Shown in pieces: positions 4,178-41,424 of a stretch of DNA of 45,876 bases. The stretch spans positions 1,193,941 through 1,239,816 of the forward strand of contig NC_057719.1 in assembly GCF_004010195.1 (NCBI RefSeq), read 5' to 3'. This DNA comes from Chiloscyllium plagiosum. Taxonomy: Eukaryota. The position numbers and the translations under genes were made by a program. The notes under the pieces are model-generated. The model did not search any database. It was given only the letters and a program-made list of their open reading frames with translations, and was not told the origin of the DNA. Every line of letters begins with the position of its first letter. The stretch's first letter is position 1.

Positions 4178-4645
4178 GGTAACAGGAAGAAAGTTAGCCA
4201 CCAGGATACATGAACACTAGCTAGCCACACAAAAAGACATGACCCTCTCTCCCTCGTTGCCCTACACACGGAGGAAAAAAAACCCACCATTTTGACTGGG
4301 ACAACACATCTATCCTGGGACAGGCTAAGCAAAGACATGCCAGAGAATTCCTAGAGGCCTGGCAATCCAACCACAACGCCATAAACAAACACATAGATCT
4401 AGGTACCATCTATCAACCCCTCAGAAAACGAACAGGAAATGACATCACCACAAACCCCAGGAATCCCATCCAGGACAAACATATAAATAGAAAGGAGGAG
4501 ACAACAGCTTTGCTTCACTTGGAGGTCGCCACTGATGATGTTACCTAGCCAGGTAATGAAATGTCTGGATACCAATCCTACAGCTCAAAGAGCAAACCTA
4601 CACCCTAAACCTCAACATGAGCTACAAACCTTCACAAACCTTGCA
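4178..4645 (+). mobile_element. Penelope-like element 3' fragment (family C)
   Basis: GIY-YIG C-terminal remnant (TGRKLATRIHEH...HFDWDNTSIL), closely similar to 34915-35478, and carries an HHR. Confidence 0.8.
4529..4568 (+). ncRNA. Minimal hammerhead motif (family C)
   Basis: CCA-CUGAUGA-U-GUUACC-uagcca-GGUAAU-GAA-AUGU-C|UGG, with stem I CCA/UGG. Confidence 0.7.
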
Positions 4646-4674: not shown

Positions 4675-6808
4675 CCCCACCACAAAAATGGATCCCATGA
4701 GTCTTGCAGCAGACACGGAGGACTTCATCAGAACGAATGAGGCTCCAGGAATTCTTTCAAGAAGCCAGCAGTGATCCCAGTGAGCCCACCGAGGAAGCAG
4801 AACAGTCATCAGAGATGTCTGTAGAGGAGTGACCAAAGAAGGAGTCAATTTGGACCCCACTGGAGGGCTGCCCTGGGTGTGACATGTGTGCTCAAACTGT
4901 CAGGAAATATATAAATGCCAGATGCATCAGCCGTACCCGTAAGGTAGAGCAAAACATCACCGGTTCACAACACAACACCATCCATGCTCTCAAAACCAAT
5001 CACAACATTGTCATCAAATCAGCAGATAAAGGAGGAGCCATCGTTATTCAGAATAGAACGGACTACTGCAAGGAAGTGTACCGACAACTGAACAACCAGG
5101 AACACTACAGGCAACTACCGGCTAATCCGACCAAAGAACACACCCGTGATCTAAACACATTGATCAGGAGTTAGGATCCAGTCCTTCAGGGTTCCCCACG
5201 CACTCTCATCCCACGTACTTCTCGCATAGGAGACTTCTATTGCCTTCCAAAATACATAAAGCCAACCCACCAGGACGTCCCATCCTATCAGGCAATTGGA
5301 CCCTGTGTGAGAATCTCTCTGGCTAGATCAAAGGCATCTTGAAACCCATTGTAGAGGGGACCCCAAGCTTCTGTCACAACACTACAGATTTCTTACAGAA
5401 ACTCAGCATTGCCCGGACCAGTCGAACCAGGAACATTCCTCGTCACAATTGATGTTTCAGCACCCTACAACAGCATCCTCCACAATGAAGGCATCACAGC
5501 AACAGCCTCAGTACTCAGTATCAACAACTGCCAATCTCCAAGCACCATCCTACAACTCCTCATCCGCTTTATCCTCAACCACAGCATTTTCACCTTTGAC
5601 AACCAGTAGTTCATCCAGATACATGGAACAGCCATGGGGACCAAATTTTCACCCCAATATGCCAACATTTTCATGCACAGATTCAAAAAAGTCTTCTTCT
5701 CTACGTAGGACCTCCAACCAACACCATATACCAAGTATATTGACGATAGTTATTTCCTCTGGACCCATGGTGAGGAGTCACTGAAACAACCACACAGTGA
5801 TATCAATGAGTTTCATCCCACCATCAGACTTACCATGGACTACTCTCTACTATCTGTCTCATTCTTGGACACATGCATCTCTAAGGATGGGCACCTCAGC
5901 ACCTCATTCTACCATAAACCCATGGATAACCTCACGATGCTGCACTTCTCCAGCTTCCACCCAAAACATATTAAAACAACGACCCCGAAAGACAAGCCCT
6001 ACGCATACACCGGATCTGTTCAGATGAGGAGGAACATGATGGGCAATTGGAAGTACCTACGGATGCCCTCATAAGAATGGAGTATGATGCTCAACTCATC
6101 GACCGCCAGTTCTGACATGCCACAGTGAGAAACCGTAATGACAGACACGAGCTGCAACCGACAGGGTACCCTTCATTGTCCGGTACTTCCCAGGAGCCGA
6201 AAAACTAAGCCATATTCTTCGCGGCCTGCAGCACATTATCAATGAGGATGAGCACATGACCAAGACCTTCCCTACACCTCCACTGCTCGCTTTTAAACAA
6301 CCACCAAACCTCAAACAGATAATTGGTCGTAGCAAACTGCCCAGCTTTCAGGACGATACCATACAAACTTGTCACGGTTGTGAGACATGTCAGAGTGTCA
6401 TCACAGGCAACACCATTACACGTGGGGACCCCTCCCACCATGTATATGGCAGGTACTCATGTGACTCGGCCAAAGTTGTCTGCAGGCAAGGATGCCCTGA
6501 GACATGGTACATTGGTGAGACCAAGCAGAGGCTACGGCAACGGATAAATGAACACCACACAGCTATCAACAGACAGGAGTGTTCCCTTCAAGTCAGAGAA
6601 CACTTCAGCGGTCCAGGACACTTGACCTTGGATCTTTGGGTGATCGTCCTCCAAGGCAGACTTCGAGACAGGCAACAACGCAAAGTGGCTGAGCAGAGGC
6701 TGATAGCCAAGTTCGGTACCCATGGGGATTGCCTCAACCCCAGAACCTCGGGTTCATGTCACACTACAAGTGACCCCTTTGCACTACGCACACAGAGACA
6801 TACACAGT

Positions 6809-6864
<56 letters not shown>

Positions 6865-7132
6865 TCCTACAGACCCAGACATTCACGCAGACCCTCTCTC
6901 ATACGTTCACACATGCACCCCCACACTCACACACCCTCTCACAAACCTGTGCCCCTTTACACTCACCCTCACGCACATGCACATACTCTCTCACAGACAC
7001 TTATACCCCGCTGTGCACACACACCCACATGCACGCACACACACACGTATAAGTTTGTGAAGTGAATTTGTACTTGCAGAATTGCATTTTATTTTGCTCA
7101 AAAACTGCGTGAATCCATGTAAGATTCTGTAA
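4675..7132 (+). mobile_element. Penelope-like element (family D), near full-length decayed RT + GIY-YIG ORF, 5' part
   Basis: Motifs IVIKSADKGGAIVI, FYCLPKIHK..PGRPI, LVTIDVSAPYNSI, GTAMG, KYIDD, SFLD and WYIGETKQRLRQRINEH, with multiple stops and frameshifts. A (CA)n-rich 3' UTR follows. Confidence 0.92.
6809..6862. repeat. (CA)n microsatellite in the PLE 3' UTR
   Basis: Seen directly in the sequence. Confidence 0.95.
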
Positions 7133-10695: not shown

Positions 10696-11092
10696 ATGTA
10701 AGATTCTGTAAATCCCTTTTTTAGATTAGAATCAGTCTGAACGTTGGGGCACAGACAGCCTCACACAGGGCACCTCACACCTTCAATGCATTATCTGGGC
10801 CAGTGTGGCCCCTATTGTTGAAGTTCACTTGAGAATGTAACTTTAAGAAATTTACATATGGAAGAACTGAAACAACATGCCCATTCTAAAAGATGAGAGA
10901 CTTAACAAACAACCCAGGTCTTTTTCAATATATAATTTCAGTTACATCACATTGTAAACTTTTGCTGTAAATTCTGTGTCCTACGATCTTATACTGCACA
11001 ACCACCTGATGAAGGAGCAGCGCTCCGAAAGCTCGTACTTCCAAATAAACCTGTTGGACTATAACCTGGTGTTGTGTGATTTTTAACTTTGT
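10696..11092 (+). mobile_element. Penelope-like element (family D) pLTR, continuation after the Tx1 insertion
   Basis: Resumes at the duplicated atgtaagattctgtaa and is colinear with the uninterrupted copy at 22060-22480. Confidence 0.92.
11003..11037 (+). ncRNA. Minimal hammerhead motif (family D), core intact
   Basis: CAC-CUGAUGA-A-GGAGC-agc-GCUCC-GAA-AGCU-C|GUA. Confidence 0.75.
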
Positions 11093-13174: not shown

Positions 13175-14445
13175 ATAAGATATAGGAGCGGTATTAGGCC
13201 ATTCAGCCCATCGACACTGCTCCACCATTCAGTCATGGCTGATACGTTTCTCATCCCCATTCTCCCATTTTCTCTCTGAAATCTTTGATCCTCTTACCAA
13301 TCAAAGACCTATTTCATAAATTACTGGAAAAGCTCAACTGTTCTTCTCTCTCTTTGGGCTCTATGTCCACTTATTGTTTACTCTTTACCCCCTTCCTCCA
13401 CCCTATCTTCTGCATATAAAACAACATTTTCCGTGCAGAGAAATCAGAGTTAACATTTTGGGTCCAGTGACCCTTCCTCAGAACTGGGTATGTTCGGAGG
13501 AACGGTCACTCGATCCGAAACATTAACTGATTTCTCTCCACAGATGCTGCCAGACCTGCTGAGCTTTTCCAGCAATTTCTGTTTTTGGTCCTTAACTACC
13601 TGTTGTTGTATGGAGGGATTTTCTTGCTGTATGGTTAATGGTTGTTTCACAGCTAATGAATGGGTTGGCCCGCACAGCCCTGTGTGATAATGAGTTCCAC
13701 AGGTTCACCACCCTCTGACTGAAGAAATTCCTCCTCACGACTGCTCTAAAGCATCATCCCTTCACTCTGAGGCTGTGCCATTAGGTCCCAGTCTCTCCTA
13801 CTAGTGGAAGCATCTTCTCCATGTCCACTCCATCCAGGCCTCTCAGTGTTCTAGAAGTTTCAATCAGATCCCCCTCACCTTTCTAAACTCCATTGAGTAC
13901 AGACTCACAGTCTTCAACTGCTCTTCATAGGACAATCCTTTCGTCCCCAGGAGTATTCTTGTAAATCTCCTCTGGACTCCCTCCAAGGCCAGCACATCCT
14001 TCCTTAGATATGAGGCCCATAACTGCTCAGAATATTCAAAACGTGGTCTGACCAGAGCCTTATACAGCCTCAGCAGTACATCTCTGCTCTTGAAATGAAT
14101 GCTAACATTGCATTTACCTTCCAAACTGCCGACCGAACCTGCATGTTAACCTTAAGAGAATCCTGAACAAGGACTCCCAAGTCCCTTTGTGCTTCAGATT
14201 TCCAAAGCCTATCCCCATTTCAAAACAACCTCTATTCTTCCTCCCAACGAGGACAACCTCACATTTTCTCACATTGAACTCCATCTGCCATTTCTTTGCC
14301 CAGTCTCCTAGCCTGTCCAAGTCCTTCTGCTGACTCCCCACTTCCTCAGTACTACCTGTCACTCCACGTATCTTTGTGGCATCTGAAAATATAGCAACAA
14401 TGACCTCAGTTTGTTTGTCCAGATCATGAATGTGTAACATGAATC
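13175..14445 (-). mobile_element. CR1 LINE 3' part, interrupted at about 13320-13670
   Basis: FSDATKI..DLDRLGDWAKKWQMEFNVRKC and LYKALVRPRFEYSEQLW..LEGVQRRFTR. Confidence 0.88.
13449..13527. ncRNA. Back-to-back pair of degenerate HHR motifs (family B)
   Basis: Minus 13449-13484: GUU-CUGAGGA-A-GGGUC-acug-GACCC-aAAAUGUU-AAC. Plus 13492-13527: GUU-CgGAGGA...GAAACAUU-AAC. Confidence 0.5.
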
Positions 14446-14964
14446 GCAAAGGACGAGCAGATTTACAGACTGGCAGATGATACCGTTATGATAGAGTACA
14501 GAGTCTGGTCTCAGGAACTACTTGTTGTCAATGTCTCTGATTTCAAGAAGGTTTTCCATATCATCCATTGACAGTCACTCTGTGACGATATAACATTGGT
14601 TAGAGTCTGGTGTTGGGAGGTGTATATTAAAATCTTCAAAGGTCTTTTACTGCAATTCCAGTTGCTGCATCCAGGCCAGTGTGCACCCCAGACCCCACCA
14701 GGCTGCACACTCTCCCCATTCCTTCCCTCTCACTCAGTAGCTACATTGTGGGGAAGGTAGCAGCTGTATCCTACAGTCAACACTGGTGGCTGACGGGTCT
14801 GAGTTAGATAAACGGCTATACCTGCTCCTTGATGGCTGAGAAATCACATGCACTCCACCACACTCTCCGGTCCTCGGAGTGGTGATACCAACCCATTCAT
14901 TGGCTGTGAGACAACCATTAACCGGACAGCAACAAAATCCCTCCATTCAACAACAAGTAGTTAA

Positions 14965-15260
14965 GGACCAAAAACAAATTTCTGGAAAAGCTCAGCAGGT
15001 CTGGCAGCATCTGTGGAGAGAAATCAGAATTAACGTTTTAGATCAAGTGACTCTTCCTCAGAACTGATGGTAGCGAGGAAAATGTTGCTTTATATGGAGA
15101 AGATAGGGTGGAGGAAGGGGGTAAAGAGTAAACAATAAGTGGACATAGAGCCCAAAGAGAGAGAAGAACAGTTGGACAGACAAAGGAGTGGATAATGATC
15201 CAGTTAGGAGGGTGAATAGCTGTTAATGGGGACTGTTAGTGTTGGTGGAGAGAATGAATG
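14965..15260 (-). mobile_element. Penelope-like pLTR (family B) with a degenerate HHR at 15029-15064
   Basis: Terminus cagatgctgccagacctgctgagc shared with 13540, 19900 and 31945. Confidence 0.65.
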
Positions 15261-19935: not shown

Positions 19936-20084
19936 CTGAACCTTGCACCTCAGGTATTGGCCTTGGAGGAGCATCAGTTCATTACAATGTCATCAGCACT
20001 ACAGTCAGGTTAAAGTGCAATTGAACTGAAATAAGCTAAAAACCACACAACACCAGGTTATAGTCCAACAGGTTTATTTGGAAG

Positions 20085-20119
20085 CACTAGCTTTCGGAGC
20101 GACGCTCCTTCATCAGGTG
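20085..20119 (-). ncRNA. Minimal hammerhead motif (family D), best-preserved copy
   Basis: Reverse complement reads CAC-CUGAUGA-A-GGAGC-guc-GCUCC-GAA-AGCU-A|GUG, with all stems pairing. Confidence 0.82.
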
Positions 20120-20487
20120 GTTATGGAGTATACGATTGTAAGACACAGAATTTATAGCAAATGTTTACAGTGCGATGTAACTGAAATTATATATTGAAAA
20201 AGACCCGGATTGTTTGTCAAGTCTCTCATCTTTTAGAATGACCATGTTGGTTTAAGTTCTTCCAAATGTAAATCCCAGAACTTTTTAAAAGTTACATTCT
20301 CAAGTGAACGTTAACAATTGGGGTCATGTCGGCCCAGATAATGTATTGAAGGTGTGAGCTGCCCTGTGTGAGGCTGTCTGTGCCCCAATAGTCAGAGTGA
20401 TCCTAATCTAAAAAATGGATTTACAGAAGCTTACATGGATTCATGCAGTTTTTGGGCAAAGTAAAATGTTATTCTGCAAATAGAAAT

Positions 20488-20519
<32 letters not shown>

Positions 20520-22389
20520 AAGGGGTACAATTTTGTGAGAGGGTGCATGTGTGAGTGTAGGAGTGTATGTGTGAGAGAAGGTCTGCATGAGTGTGTGTGT
20601 CTGTAGGAGAGTGCACATGTATGTGCATGTGTGTGTGTATAGTACAATGGGGTCACCTGTAATGTGACATGGACCCAGGGTCCCGGTTGAGGCCATCCCC
20701 ATGGGTACCGAACTTGGCTATCAGCCTCTGCTTGGCAACTTTGCATTGTTGCCTGTCCCGAAGTCCACCTTGGAGGACAGTCACCCGAAGGTCCGATGTC
20801 GAATGTCCTGGACCGCTGAAGTGTTCTCTGACTGGGAGGGAACACTCCTGTCTGTGGATTGCTCTGTGGTGTCCATTCATCTGTTGCCGTAGCCTCTGCT
20901 CGGGTCTCCCCAATGTACCATGCCCCAGGGCATCCTTGCCTGCAGCGAATGAGACAAACAATATTGGCTGAGTCACATGAGTTCAACTCATCAACCGCCA
21001 GTTCTGATGTGCCACAGGGAGGAACCGTAATGACCTCCTCAGGAGACAGACACGGGCTGCAACCGACAGGGTACCCTTCATTGTCCTGTATTTCCCAGGA
21101 GCTGAGAAACGACGCCATGTTCTTCGTGGCCTGCAATACATTATCAATGAGGGTGAGCACCTCATCAAGACCTTCCCTACACCTCCACTGCTCGCTTTTA
21201 AACAACCACCGAACCTCAAACAGATCATTGTTCACAGCAAACTGCCCGACCTTCAGGACAATACCATACAACCCTGTAACGGTAGATGGTGCAAGACGTG
21301 TCAGAATGTCGACAGGGATACCACCATTACACTTGGGGACACCTCCCACCATGTCTGGCAGGTACTCATGTGACTTGGCCAATGTTGTCTATCTCATACG
21401 CTGCAGGCAAGGATGCCCTGGGGCATGGGGGAGACCGAGCAGAGGCTACAGCAATGAATAAATGGGCACCGCACAACAATCACCAGGCAGGGGTGTTCCC
21501 TCCCAGTCGGAGAACACTTCAGCGGTCTGCGACATTCGACCTTGGACCTTCGGGTGACCGTCCTCCAAGGCAGACTTCAGGACAGGCAACAACGCAAAGT
21601 GGTCAATAGGCTGACAGCCAAGTTCGGTACCCATGGGGATGGCCTCAACCGGGACCTTGGGTTCATGTCATGCTACAGGTGACCCCATTGCACTACATAC
21701 ACACACACTCCTACACACACGTACACACACACACTCCTGCGCACACACACACACTCTCTCTCCTACAGACACACACACTCCTACAGACCCATACACTCAC
21801 GCAGACCCTCTGTCAAGCACAAGCTCTCTCTCATACGCTCACACATACACTCCCAAACTCAGACAAGCATACATAGAACCTCTCACAGACTTACACCCCT
21901 TTACACTCACACTCACTCACACACATACATGCACCCTCTCACTCATAACCCCCACCCCCACCCCCACACACTCACATGCACTCATATACATATACGTTTG
22001 TGGGGTGAATCTGTACTTGCAGAGTTACATTTTATTTTGCTCAAAAACTGCGTGAATTCATGTAAGAATCTGTAAATCCCTTTTTTAGATTAGAATCAGT
22101 CTGAACGTTGGGGCACAGACAGCCTCACACAGGGCACCTCACACCTTCAATGCATTATCTGGGCCAGTGTGGCCCCTATTGTTAAAGTTCACTTGAAAAT
22201 GTGAAAATGTGAATGTAACTCTTAAAAAGTTCTGGGATTTACATATGAAAGAACTGAAACCAACATGGTCATTCTAAAAGATCAGAGACTTAACAAACAA
22301 TCCAGGTCTTTTTCAATATATAATTTCAGTTACATCACACTGTAAACTTTGCTATAAATTCTGTATCTTACAATCATATACTCCATAAC

Positions 22390-22424
22390 CACCCGATGAA
22401 GGAGCAGTGCTCCGAAAGCTAGTG
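22390..22424 (+). ncRNA. Hammerhead motif (family D) with a core mutation, CCGAUGA
   Basis: CAC-CcGAUGA-A-GGAGC-agu-GCUCC-GAA-AGCU-A|GUG. Confidence 0.6.
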
Positions 22425-22639
22425 CTTCCAAATAAACCTGTTGGACTATAACCTGGTGTGGTGTGATTTTTAACTTTGTCCACCCCAGTCCAACACCGGC
22501 ATCTCCAAATCATGAACTGAAATATTTTCAAATTGGTCAGGGGTTTGATACAATAGAGATGGGGAAATCCATTTCCTCCGCTGGGGGAGTCTTTAATTTT
22601 TTTCCTGGCTTGGGGCATTGTTAGCAGTATATGGTAACA

Positions 22640-25832: not shown

Positions 25833-26179
25833 CTAACTGAGGTGAGTTAATGAGGTGAGCTTGGTCAGATACAGCAAGGCGGCTCTCTGGCCCTCATGAC
25901 AGAAATCCTTCCAAAAAACCCAGTAAAGCTCAGCCTTCTAAAGAAAAAACCCAAGATACAACCCCTTCTGGGTTTGCTGAGGCCCATCTAGAGCTCCATT
26001 GCTGACTGATTTGGGCACCTCCACATCACAAATGTCAGTGACATTAATCTGTAGTTTCTTGTCACCGACCTCCATCCTTTCAGAGATACCTTTGGATATT
26101 TGCTACTTTCCAGAGTTGAGTGAATTTTCTGGGAATGTTTGGGAGCTACATGTGGCTGTGGAGTCACAGGGAGCCAAGG

Positions 26180-26750
26180 TCAGAAGTCACACCACACCAG
26201 GTTACAGTCCAACAGGTTTATTTGAAATCACAAGCTTTCAGAGCGCTGCTCCTTCATTGGGTGAAGTGACGAGAGGTACACAGGCACAGAATTTATAAAG
26301 TTAAAAATCACGCAACACCAGGTTATAGTCCAACAATTTATTTCAAAGCACTAACCACCTGATGAAAGAGTGATGCTCCGAAAGCTAGTGCTTCCATATG
26401 AACCTGTTGGACTATAACCTGGTGAGGTGTGATTTTTAACTTTGTCCACCCCAGTCCTACACCGGCTCCTCCACCTCACGGAACTTATAATCAGAGAGAT
26501 CGAAAGATCAAACAACTGGTGTGGTTGGAGGTGAATGTCAGGTGAAGGGGTGACCTATATTCTGATTAATTGAGGCAGAGAGATAATTACAAAAGAAATG
26601 AAAATAAGGTGGTGCTGGAGACAAACTAAACGGCTGGAATAACATGATGGGAATAAGAGTCAGATGCCAAGGGTCTAGCCAAAGTAACAAGTAATCCAAA
26701 ACTGTACAAACTAATTAAGGCAGAGAGATCAGGGGGCCAAACCCTAGGGT
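26180..26750 (-). mobile_element. Older Penelope-like pLTR related to family D, with a degenerate HHR at 26230-26264
   Basis: acaccaggttacagtccaacaggtttattt...agctttcagagcgctgctccttcat resembles 20050-20115. The right boundary is uncertain. Confidence 0.55.
26299..26476 (+). mobile_element. ~180-bp palindromic PLE mini-element centred on an HHR (26355-26390)
   Basis: Inverted arms 26297-26353 and 26385-26442, TSD cacagaatttataa/cacggaacttataa (12 of 14 match), and the same two ends as 20034-22512. Confidence 0.8.
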
Positions 26751-27387
26751 AGGTCTTCCAGAGAGCTAGTACAGAGAGGGAGGACTGAATGGCCTCATTC
26801 TGAGCTGCTGTATGAATGCCGGGTGAGACAGGACAGCGTTATTCTGCTGCAGACTGTGAGGTTGATCCCAACACAATTCACTGTCTGATCCTTATCAAGG
26901 TTTAACAGAGAAACCGTGCCTCTCAGACGCAGCTTAATTGACCACCTACACACAGTAAGTGGTGTTGTTTCTTTTTAAATTAATTCCAGGAATATCATAT
27001 TGAAATCCTGTTTTTAAAATGAACTAATCCACTTGCTCTTTTACTGTGGTGAACCTCCTACCTTTTGATTGCTCTCCGAATAAACAAGTCACAAGCAGGG
27101 TTGAATGTAAGAGCTGGATATGAAAGGTCACAGCAGTTAGTGGGGACCCAGGCTGCACTCAGGGTGTCTGCAGCAAGACTCTCCCAAGCTGCAGTTATAC
27201 CCAGGGCCTCGGAGATGGACAGGATTCTGAACATTGCTGCATTTGTTAATCAGTGAGATTAAAACCTGCATTTATATAGCTCCAACCATACAGGTCAGGG
27301 CTCCCAAAGCAATTTCAGGGTGTTCATAATGGTAGGCAGCTGTGACACCAAGTTGATAAAGGCCACATTAACCTTAACCATGGGAAG

Positions 27388-27670
27388 GTGTAGAAGGAGC
27401 TTTACTCTGTATCTAACCCCGTGCTGACCCTGTCCTGGGACTGTTTGATGGGGACAGTGTAGAGGGAGTTTTACTCTGTATGTAACCCCGTGCTGTCCCT
27501 GTCCTGGGAGAGTTTGATGGGGACAGTGTAGAGGGAGCTTTACTCTGTATCTAACCCTAAGCTGCACTTTCAGGTTAAAAGAGGAGAGGGAGCTTCATAT
27601 TGTATCTAATCCCATCCTATACCTGTCTTGATTGTGTTTGTTGGGAACAGTGTAGTGGGAGCACTGCTTG
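27388..27670. repeat. 69-bp minisatellite
   Basis: gtgtagagggagctttactctgtatctaaccccgtgctg... at 27388, 27457 and 27526, with decayed copies out to about 27900. Confidence 0.88.
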
Positions 27671-34671: not shown

Positions 34672-35476
34672 AGTTTTGAGAAGATTTGTAGCTCAGGTTG
34701 AGGTTCTGGATGTGGGCTTGCTCGCTGAGCTGGAGGGTTCATTTCCTGGCATCATTGCCAGACTACTCAGACCTCTTGGCATCATGGTAGCCCACAAACC
34801 CACCAACACACTAAAACAGCAGCTAATGAACTTGAAAGACCCTATACAGACAACAAGCAAAACTAATGTCATTTACAAAATACCGTGCAACGACTGTAAC
34901 AAACACTACATTGGACAAACAGGAAGAAAACTAACCACCAGGCTACATGAACACCAACTAGCCACGAAAAGACATGACCCTCTCTCACTAATATCCTCAC
35001 ATACAGATGAGGAAGGACACCACTTCGATTGGGACAACACAAACAGAGAGATGCACGAGAAATCCTAAAAGCATGGCATTCCAACCAGAACTCTATCAAC
35101 AAACACATTGAGTTAGACCCCATCTACCACCCCCTGAGAAAAGGAACAGGAAATAGCATCACCCACAGGAAATAATGTCACCAGCCCAAGGAAACCCAAA
35201 CACATAAATAAAAAGTGGGCCATACCACCAGTGCTTCATCTGGAGGCTCACTGATGATGTTACCTAGTATGGTGACGAAACACCCCTGAGAAAAGGAACA
35301 GGAAATAGCATCACCCACAGGAAATAATGTCGCCAGCCCAAGGAAACCCAAACACATAAATAAAAAGTGGGCCATACCACCAGTGCTTCAGCTGGAGGTT
35401 CACTGATGATGTTACCTAGTATGGTGACGAAACATCTGAAAATGGACCTTTCAGCTCAGCGAGCAAACCTACATCC
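34672..35476 (+). mobile_element. Penelope-like element (family C): inverted 5' pLTR piece, GIY-YIG and tandem HHR repeats
   Basis: 14-bp TSD aggagtagggaaca at 34658-34671 and 35477-35490, and NVIYKIPCNDCNKHYIGQTGRKLTTRLHEH. The segment 34705-34744 is inverted relative to 35440-35478. Confidence 0.92.
35399..35440 (+). ncRNA. Minimal hammerhead motif (family C); a truncated sister copy lies at 35248-35282
   Basis: UUCA-CUGAUGA-U-GUUACC-uaguau-GGUGAC-GAA-ACAU-C|UGAA, with a 4-bp stem I. Confidence 0.72.
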
Positions 35477-37410: not shown

Positions 37411-37456
37411 CTCTCCTGTCCTCTCCCTTGTTTGGTGGCTGGGAACAAAGGATTTA

Positions 37457-38170
37457 AGAGGAGAAAGTGAGGACTGCAGATGCTGGAGATCAGAGCTGAA
37501 AATGTGTTGCTGAAAAAGCGCAGCAGGTCAGGCAGCATCCAAGGAGCAGGAGAATCGACGTTTCGGGCATGGGCCCTTCATTCCTGAAGAANNNNNNNNN
37601 NNNNNNNNNNNNNNNNNNNNNNNNNNNNNNNNNNNNNNNNNNNNNNNNNNNNNNNNNNNNNNNNNNNNNNNNNNNNNNNNNNNNNNNNNNNNNNNNNNNN
37701 NNNNNNNNNNNNNNNNNNNNNNNNNNNNNNNNNNNNNNNNNNNNNNNNNNNNNNNNNNNNNNNNNNNNNNNNNNNNNNNNNNNNNNNNNNNNNNNNNNNN
37801 NNNNNNNNNNNNNNNNNNNNNNNNNNNNNNNNNNNNNNNNNNNNNNNNNNNNNNNNNNNNNNNNNNNNNNNNNNNNNNNNNNNNNNNNNNNNNNNNNNNN
37901 NNNNNNNNNNNNNNNNNNNNNNNNNNNNNNNNNNNNNNNNNNNNNNNNNNNNNNNNNNNNNNNNNNNNNNNNNNNNNNNNNNNNNNNNNNNNNNNNNNNN
38001 NNNNNTCGCATTCCCCACGCCCCTCCCCCAAGTCCCTCCTCCCTACTTTTTATCTAGACGTTTCGGGCATGAGCCCTTCATTCCTGAAGAAGGGCTCATG
38101 TCCGAAACGTCGATTCTCCTGCTCCTTGGATGCTGCCTGACCTGCTGCGCTTTTCCAGCAACACATTTTC
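37457..38170. mobile_element. PLE family A insertion with inverted termini spanning a gap
   Basis: 13-bp TSD aacaaaggattta at 37444-37456 and 38171-38183. Confidence 0.8.
38081..38114 (+). ncRNA. Minimal hammerhead motif (family A), core intact
   Basis: uuc-CUGAAGA-A-GGGC-ucau-GUCC-GAA-ACGU-C|ga. Confidence 0.72.
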
Positions 38171-38679
38171 AACAAAGGATTTACCCAAAGCCAAGTCCTA
38201 TGGTCAGAGGCTGGATGGGCTGAGCCCAGGGCTCCTACATCCCACCGGTCTCTCAGCTGGAGAGCTCAGGGAGATTCCAACACCCAAATCCCATTGTGAA
38301 AGCAGTGAACAACACGTTTTATACAGATCCCTTTCTCTGTAACAGAGACAAAGCCACTTGTCAGAATGCAGCCCATACAGTCCCTAGAGTTTGTGTGTGT
38401 CTCTGATCAGAGTGGCGTCTTGTCAGATACGATCCCAACAAGATGCGTGGAAGATGGGGCTCTAATTGGGGTGATCTGCCACTGAACTGCAGTGTGGTGG
38501 TAGGGGAGAGTTTCGCTGTGAATGAGATTACCTGCACTTTCATTGACGTTAAACAATTGTATTTCCATCACTGGTCCCCTCTATGAAAGGGAAGACATTG
38601 CATTCTCATAGAACCTCAGGATACTTTAAAGTGTTTCACAATCAATTAAATACCTTGCCAGTGATCACTGTAAACACAG

Positions 38680-40135: not shown

Positions 40136-40378
40136 TGAATGTTTGAAGTATCCTTCACCATAAAAACTGTTTAACTCCTTTGCCATTTCCTTGTTCCCCA
40201 AAACTTCTCCCCAAATGCATTATCTAAAAGGCCGACATTAACTTTGATCTTTCTCTTGCTTTCATTAATATTTAAAGGAGCTTCTGTTGTGAGTTTTTAT
40301 ATTCCTTGCTAATTTGCCCTCAACGTTTATTTTCTCTCTCTTTACTATCTGTTTAGTTCTGCTAGATTCTGAATTTAT

Positions 40379-41151
40379 TTACAGACAAAGAAAACTGCAG
40401 ATGCTGGAATCCACAGTAGACAGGCAGGAGGCTGGAGGAACACAGCAAGCCAGGCAGCATCAGGAGGAACAGGCAGGAAGCTAGGGGAACACAGCAAGGC
40501 AGGCAGCATCAGGAGGGACAGGCAGGAGGCAGGAGGCTGGAGGAACACAGCAAGCCAGGCAGCAACAGGAGGGACAGGCAGGAGGCAGGAGGCTGGAGGG
40601 CTGGGAAGGGAGTTGGGGGATGGGAAGGGAGGTTATTTGAAATTGGAAAACTCAATGGGTTCGTCCGGGCTGTAGACCAGTCTGACCTCCCAGTCACCAC
40701 CCATTTTAATTCCCACTCCCATTCCATGACCATCCTTGGCCTCCTCCATTGCTGCAGTGAATCTGACCTCAAATTGGAGGAACAACACCTCATCTTCCGC
40801 CTGGGCAGCTTACAGCCCGGAGGGCTCAACATTGAGTTCTCCAATTTCAAGTAACCTCCCTTCCCAGCCCCTCCCCCTTCCACTCCTCTGACCAACCCTT
40901 CCTTCCAGTCACCAACCGGATTCATTCCTTCCATCAACCAACCAGGTTGTACCCTCTACCTGTCTTCACCTATTCCCCACCTCACCACCCTGGCCCTCTC
41001 CCCATACATTACCCTTCCTTCCTCCCACCCCCTTTATCTGCAGCTCCCTCTACACCCACCCCCAGTACTGAAGAAGGGTTACACCTGAAACATTGACTTC
41101 TCCACCTCCAGATGATGCCTGGCGTGCTGTGTTCTTCCAGCCTCCTGTTTG
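40379..41151. mobile_element. Penelope-like remnant with inverted termini and a degenerate HHR at 41065-41097
   Basis: TSD gattctgaatttat/gattctcaatttat, and KLEEQHLIFRLGSLQPGGLNIEFSNF on the + strand. The left terminus is tandemly reiterated at 40420-40600. Confidence 0.8.
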
Positions 41152-41424
41152 GATTCTCAATTTATCCCAATCCTCAGGGCTATCACTGACTTTTACCTCC
41201 TTAGCTTTTTCTCAACTGAATACTCTCCTTCACTTCCTTGGTTAGCCATGATTGAGTTTACCCCTGTCTTAAAAATTTCCCTCATTCCTGGGAAGTATTT
41301 TTGCTTGAATTACCTCCTTCAATATCTACCACGACTTTGCTACTGTCCTTCCTGCTAATCTATCCACCCAGTTCACTTTAGTTAACTCTACCCTCATCTC
41401 AAAGTAAAACTCCCTTTTCTCAAA

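Follow-up and report, generated by a model that had tools for sequence, protein, structure and literature searches.

The stretch of Chiloscyllium plagiosum DNA analyzed here (the window; 45,876 nt of contig NC_057719.1) contains a short palindromic unit with a hammerhead ribozyme motif, flanked by a target-site duplication (TSD). The question was whether this unit belongs to a small family that propagates in its own right or is an ordinary insertion of a Penelope-like element (PLE) that happens to be extremely short. We compared the unit with the other PLE copies in the window, with assembled contigs from three organisms (A, B and C) and with RNA reads.

Anatomy, target site and decay of the unit

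The unit spans positions 26299-26478 (180 bp). Its inverted arm is 55 bp long, and its direct arm, of 127 bp, carries a minimal hammerhead and a tail of ~33 bp (Table 1). In an alignment, 26299-26353 paired with 26386-26441 (55 versus 56 nt) with 8 mismatches and 1 gap, in agreement with the inverted arms of about 55 bp given in the preliminary description. The RNA fold of 26285-26495 had a predicted energy of -78.4 kcal/mol (z = -9.35), and none of 200 shuffled sequences was as stable. Together with the flanking duplication, these results confirmed a TSD-flanked palindrome of ~180 bp. The CTGATGA core, stem II and the GAAA all lie within the 32-nt loop. The arms had been thought to enclose just the hammerhead core; what they enclose is instead part of a direct pLTR fragment that begins 6-7 nt upstream of the core and continues into an unpaired tail. 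All of the unit is Penelope pLTR sequence; neither arm extends beyond the pLTR, so that no ORF or UTR remains and the unit indeed encodes nothing. The inner joint of the two arms is a 2-nt TA microhomology, where TA is self-complementary, and the junction at 26353/26354 occurs a single time in the window at up to 3 mismatches.

Table 1. Features of the 180-bp unit, its host and related copies in the window.
Feature	Position	Strand	Details
Left TSD, 10-12 bp, inside host pLTR	26287..26298	+	last AA also fits inverted arm
Right TSD	26479..26490	+
Inverted, 5'-truncated pLTR arm without tail	26299..26353	-	inner end maps to 26386-26388 of direct arm
Direct pLTR arm, 5'-truncated, with hammerhead, 3' end and tail; poly(A) signal decayed	26352..26478	+
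Minimal type-I hammerhead	26353..26393	+	core 26359-65, extra A 26366, stem II 26367-79, GAAA 26380-83, palindromic AGCT
Family AATAAA position	26397..26402	+	broken here by two changes
AC-rich tail, one end only	26446..26478	+
Host 3' part, older sister Penelope-like copy: tailless pLTR, hammerhead decayed	26178..26298	-	left TSD 26167-26177
Host 5' part, same older copy	26491..26729	-	right TSD 26730-26740
Same-family reference insertion, 2.5 kb	20034..22512	+	~950-bp inverted arm; ~1530-bp direct arm (EN fragment, pLTR, tail)
Same-family direct copy ending at no-tail site	10696..11092	+
Long decayed RT + GIY-YIG copy of partner family	4884..7132	+

The two ends of the unit had been described as those of the 2.5-kb element, and they matched base for base and in register. 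The direct arm was 91% identical to the 3' end of that element over 122 nt. In layout and register the unit is the same as the 2.5-kb copy, and only the length of the arms differs.

The two TSD copies agreed at 10 of 12 positions, or at 12 of 14 if they are extended by a CA that also ends the tail, and their register was exactly that of the perfect 12/12 TSD of the 2.5-kb element (20022-33 and 22513-24). As a control for chance, we compared 20,000 random flank pairs and found agreement at 10/12 or better, with a slack of ±5, in 85 of them. Only 6 of the 42,737 12-mers in the window matched the left copy at 10/12 or better, and two of these were the TSD copies themselves. A 10/12 duplication is also compatible with the decay of the unit (P about 0.3-0.6). 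Because the AA of the left copy also fits the inverted arm and TG seems to follow in the family tail, the boundaries of the unit are uncertain by 2 nt on each side, and the TSD is therefore 10-12 bp long. A duplication belonging to the unit, with a fixed register, is thus present as first described, but not at the length of ~14 bp that had been given for it.

The target was AT-rich, contained ATT and lay inside a related pLTR, and the left TSD copy was homologous to the TATAAATT motif of the invading family itself, ~40 nt upstream of its hammerhead. The Anolis element PAc favored ATT in vitro, in its own pLTR (PMC11167929), and the target site of the unit, a single case, resembles this preference.

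The 180-bp unit interrupts an older Penelope-like sister copy (26178-26729, minus strand). That host has a TSD of its own (10/11) which brackets both of its halves, so the nesting is established without an empty allele. Contigs from organisms B and C ran from the unique left flank into the host end and stopped at 26215 and 26224, with no empty site among those displayed; the host is therefore common to all three organisms, and these contig ends inform on the host only, not on the unit.

We then compared the hammerhead of the unit with that of the family. The predicted cut lies between 26387 and 26388. The direct arm differed from the majority of the three in-window copies at 9 of 93 positions, five of which were in stem II (G10.1 to A plus four more changes), and the predicted energy of stem II was -2.1 kcal/mol in the unit versus -7.2 kcal/mol in the in-window majority. 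At 26367, where the unit has A, G made up 96-99% of the family depth, and the change breaks the G10.1-C11.1 pair, which is highly conserved (PMC4209133). The inverted arm had 5 differences from the in-window majority and the direct arm had 3 private differences and 1 in common with the 2.5-kb copy; no derived change was common to both arms. An Rfam scan did not detect the minimal hammerhead, and its sole hit, a sub-threshold match to the MIR860 miRNA hairpin, was rejected. Judging from these changes, the unit has probably decayed neutrally since insertion and is probably inert, and a damaged ribozyme in what had been called a ribozyme-only element fits neutral decay.

PLE minimal hammerheads are mostly single motifs from truncated copies, and the motif in the unit is like the solo and opposite-strand motifs of truncated PLEs (Cervera and De la Pena 2014, PMC4209133) in its minimal type-I core, its extra base between 9 and 10.1 and its palindromic 15.2-16.2. 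Unlike in those motifs, the ribozyme is in one arm only, stem II has 5 bp and G10.1-C11.1 is broken.

Family ends, partner protein and fold-back joints

Copies of the family end at one of two sites. In the window, the no-tail site is the end point of the 10696-11092 copy, of the host and of the two inverted arms; both direct arms finish at the tail site. Both classes were abundant among the contigs of the three species, with 528-921 contigs per row for tail ends at 26473/26478, 455-630 for tail-bearing copies at 26175 and 409-603 for no-tail ends at 26179. The ends of the unit are thus the two usual 3' ends of the family and give no sign of a separate family. Given two reverse-transcription start sites, every fold-back of this family is expected to have these ends, whatever its length. 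In PAc, a Poseidon element of Anolis (Frangieh et al. 2024, PMC11167929), an AC-rich tail likewise separates two classes of 3' end.

RT and GIY-YIG fragments were encoded by the 2.5-kb copy and by the 4884-7132 copy, which covers most of the RT and endonuclease and whose 3' end stops short of the pLTR. When a 120-aa fragment was searched against proteins, with only longer proteins considered, 21 of 80 candidates were returned, and the best of these were carpet-shark proteins at 77-78% identity. The homologues were shark RT + GIY-YIG proteins with a C-x4-CxxC linker. This motif was found in the window at 20984-21370 and in homologues P0003 and P0008, and P0008 also had an RVT_1 domain; a Pfam search of two window fragments gave no significant match. 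A CX2-5CxxC motif in the RT-EN linker is reported for Neptune and Nematis and not for Penelope/Poseidon (PMC8557442). By this linker motif the partner ORF is of Neptune/Nematis type, in a shark, and differs in this respect from PAc (PMC11167929).

The unit is linked to an EN+ family, with RT and, at the C terminus, a GIY-YIG endonuclease, through the 91%-identical 2.5-kb copy. It also has the layout of an EN+ PLE insertion: a minimal hammerhead in the pLTR, a 5'-truncated copy in inverted orientation, a tail of 30-40 bp on one side and a TSD. A usual PLE insertion combines a direct copy with an adjacent inverted one that is 5'-truncated, carries its tail of 30-40 bp on one side only and frequently has an 8-10-bp TSD (PMC3846280, PMC8557442). 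The unit is like the complex EN+ insertions in these reports (Arkhipova et al. 2013, PMC3846280; Craig et al. 2021, PMC8557442) in its head-to-head arms, its tail at one end, its TSD of ~10-12 bp and its insertion into another Penelope copy. Unlike those insertions, it is extremely truncated and belongs to a shark family of very high copy number. Scans for the tail-end pattern found 0 loci in metagenomes, 0 in prokaryote genomes and 0 in viruses. A shorter core pattern gave 1 + 3 loci, all of them bare 20-mer chance matches that we rejected.

To describe the inner joints of other fold-backs, we viewed 15 of 998 joint rows and 12 of 602 intervening-letter rows. Eleven joints were readable by hand, nine from the former and two from the latter, after one same-orientation joint and five with unknown letters had been dropped. 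All eleven differed from one another, in a sample that was small, chosen by depth and biased toward arms ending within the examined stretch, and in which a joint identical to that of the unit cannot appear. Among the contigs displayed none spans the unit, even in the best-matching organism, A, so that absence is uninformative. Six of the 22 arm ends were concentrated in a 7-nt stretch along the hammerhead's upstream edge, compared to 1.7 expected (P = 0.006), and three fell within the 5 nt around the predicted cut, compared to 1.2 expected, which was not significant (P = 0.12). In this small sample the breakpoints of similar short copies were therefore diverse, yet not random: the joints all differ, but arm ends are concentrated at the hammerhead edge. 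Because one arm end clusters there, a junction like that of the unit could arise more than once.

A different very short fold-back, with the joint 26357 -> 26437 (X1), was present in one contig of summed depth 982 and in one RNA read. It was not among the displayed rows of the other two organisms, and it could reflect either a junction that recurs or the way contig depth is built up.

Origin of the unit and of its inverted arm

We put the probability at about 0.8 that the unit is a one-off, very short insertion, into an older sister's pLTR, of an EN+ PLE whose linker is of the Neptune/Nematis type. One of the readings first offered for this locus was a single, extremely truncated insertion, and it is supported by the layout, by the shared family ends and by the differing junctions of the other short copies.

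How the inverted arm arose is a separate matter, and we lean toward priming from both target ends rather than fold-back self-priming. An RT-endonuclease complex would nick both strands of an AT-rich site, with 10-12 nt between the nicks, and reverse transcription would be primed from both of the free 3' ends. The direct arm would start at the tail-end site and stop 127 nt later, at the hammerhead's upstream edge, the inverted arm would start at the no-tail site and stop 55 nt later, and the two cDNAs would be joined head to head via the 2-nt TA microhomology. The scheme is like L1 twin priming, in which both target nicks prime cDNA and an inversion with junction microhomology results. The two L1 segments are non-overlapping, whereas the arms here start within ~35 nt of each other, and the product is therefore a palindrome. 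With PAc in vitro, both target strands were cut and extended, and the tail was the interval between two reverse-transcription start sites (PMC11167929); that element is of the Poseidon clade, a different clade from the shark family, and the PAc mechanism, in the available portion of the paper, leaves inverted arms unexplained. Our literature search found no paper on two-end priming as a source of the inverted arms of Penelope.

A possible but appreciably less probable route to the same one-off insertion is that the cDNA primed itself by folding back and was then trimmed by the endonuclease, which would change the mechanism and not the identity of the unit. Self-priming has been proposed for PLEs (PMC3846280), as has EN-mediated resolution of the tail (PMC8557442). 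The TA at the junction is self-complementary, and the turn of the fold-back at 37444-38183 is formed by a natural hairpin at the edge of the hammerhead. Against this route, the inverted arm stops at the no-tail position of independent direct copies (10696-11092 and the host), as expected for a priming site, and no derived base links the arms, though old decay would hide one. Stem I of the hammerhead was also considered as the fold-back primer and was rejected, as its register does not yield the junction.

It is unlikely that the two arms were copied from two RNAs, one uncut, whose copying ended at the hammerhead's front edge (the direct arm), the other self-cleaved and copied to run-off at the cut (the inverted arm). 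The inner end of the inverted arm (26386-26388) does bracket the predicted cut, a match that we noticed post hoc, and in Anolis no reads were reported to end at the hammerhead cut site (PMC11167929). If the two-RNA reading were true, the stubs would be a genomic footprint of in vivo Penelope hammerhead cleavage and of two-RNA priming by a dimeric complex.

The preliminary description had also raised a non-autonomous, retrozyme- or MITE-like derivative mobilized by Penelope. We regard a family of such palindromes, propagating as whole units that the Penelope protein copies, as quite unlikely. The unit does keep the hammerhead region and both start sites. Rotifer pLTRs alone mobilized cargo in trans (PMC3846280), non-autonomous Chlamys elements exist (PMC8557442), and the joint 26357 -> 26437 is on a contig of high depth (X1), though contig depth is not copy number. 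Copying as a unit would, however, need a stop exactly at the left edge of the parent, and since that edge is the no-tail start site of the family, new priming is simpler. The ribozyme, furthermore, is decayed at a position where nearly all of the family depth has G, and the junction is found once in the window at ≤3 mismatches. Metazoan non-LTR retrozymes resemble the unit in size, in having a hammerhead, in being non-coding and in having a TSD of >4 bp (Cervera and De la Pena 2020, PMC7229834). They form head-to-tail tandem repeats, typically with canonical hammerheads, and circular RNA (PMC7229834), whereas the unit is single and head-to-head with a minimal, decayed ribozyme. In its sequence we found neither head-to-tail tandem units nor a canonical type-I hammerhead. 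Shared ends are expected of every insertion of the family and the joints displayed all differ, and together these observations argue against the proposed family.

A longer palindromic insertion, like the 2.5-kb element, that later lost its center by microhomology-mediated deletion appears very unlikely. Long inverted repeats are prone to deletion and the junction has a 2-nt microhomology, both of which would suit such an event. The direct arm, however, starts at the upstream edge of the hammerhead like 6/22 of the other arm ends, which suits truncation at insertion, and the nearby 2.5-kb palindrome survived.

Finally, a MITE of a DNA transposon would explain a short, non-coding unit with inverted arms and a TSD, but is already contradicted by the asymmetric tail and by homology: 33 nt of tail are unpaired, so the repeats are not terminal on both sides, the whole sequence is Penelope pLTR, and TSD length varies among such units (11-14 bp).

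Family transcripts and other copies in the window

RNA evidence came from one raw run (X21), a poly(A)-selected single-cell library of which 2% was read. An untemplated A/T run began at 26414/26417, or at the equivalent host positions, in 1541 of 3705 reads (~42%; sum of four loose-end rows). The poly(A) ends of the family lie 12-15 nt after AATAAA, where the DNA is not A-rich, and most reads were element-sense. Since only 128 of the 3705 reads were at least 95% alike, the run reports on the family and not on the 180-bp locus, and no reads in the 2% mapped to the unique flanks of the unit. No pile of molecule ends was seen in this 3'-tag library, which cannot show a ribozyme cut.

These poly(A) ends lie upstream of both reverse-transcription start sites, so RNAs of this kind cannot template insertion. 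We infer from their positions that the insertion templates must be read-through RNA, and host transcripts or read-through ones may obtain functional poly(A) signals from the stubs. Literature searches on such poly(A) ends, mainly among open-access papers, listed one review and no research paper, and we make no claim of novelty.

The unit itself is ordinary, an extreme truncation of a known type of insertion. It is also a clean, minimal example of Penelope-like integration, a cycle that the available parts of the literature call undefined. The summed contig depth of the family stubs was ~1e5 times that of the flanks, a rough figure and not a copy number, and shark genomes would by this rough estimate from contig depth hold ~100,000 stubs. 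With so many stubs, arm ends, tail use and target sites become countable at scale, and such counts could discriminate between priming from both ends and fold-back, and show whether hammerhead cleavage takes place in vivo.

Several other hammerhead or repeat structures were observed in the window. A TSD-flanked (13/13) fold-back of another Penelope-like family, at 37444-38183, has its tail on the left and a central assembly gap of ~415 N, and its turn is at a natural hairpin just before the hammerhead core. A third family is represented at 40365-41165 by a TSD-flanked (13/14) fold-back of ~770 bp with three tandem 49-56-bp repeats in its inverted arm; its target and that of the 180-bp unit both contain GAATTTAT. 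The segments 13335-13668 and 14888-15174 form an inverted pair (79%) that includes a Penelope end plus flank. Preceding the hammerhead of the 13335-13668 copy are an inverted hammerhead-bearing piece and a short filler; this short fold-back, at 13430-13544, has two hammerheads. The stretch 35131-35434 holds a tandem pair of 152-bp units that are 98% identical; each has a hammerhead-like core of yet another family, at 35251 and 35403, and a similar core was found at 4532. Short tandem arrays with units of 69 bp and 29 bp were located at 27382-27643 and 1831-2097, respectively.
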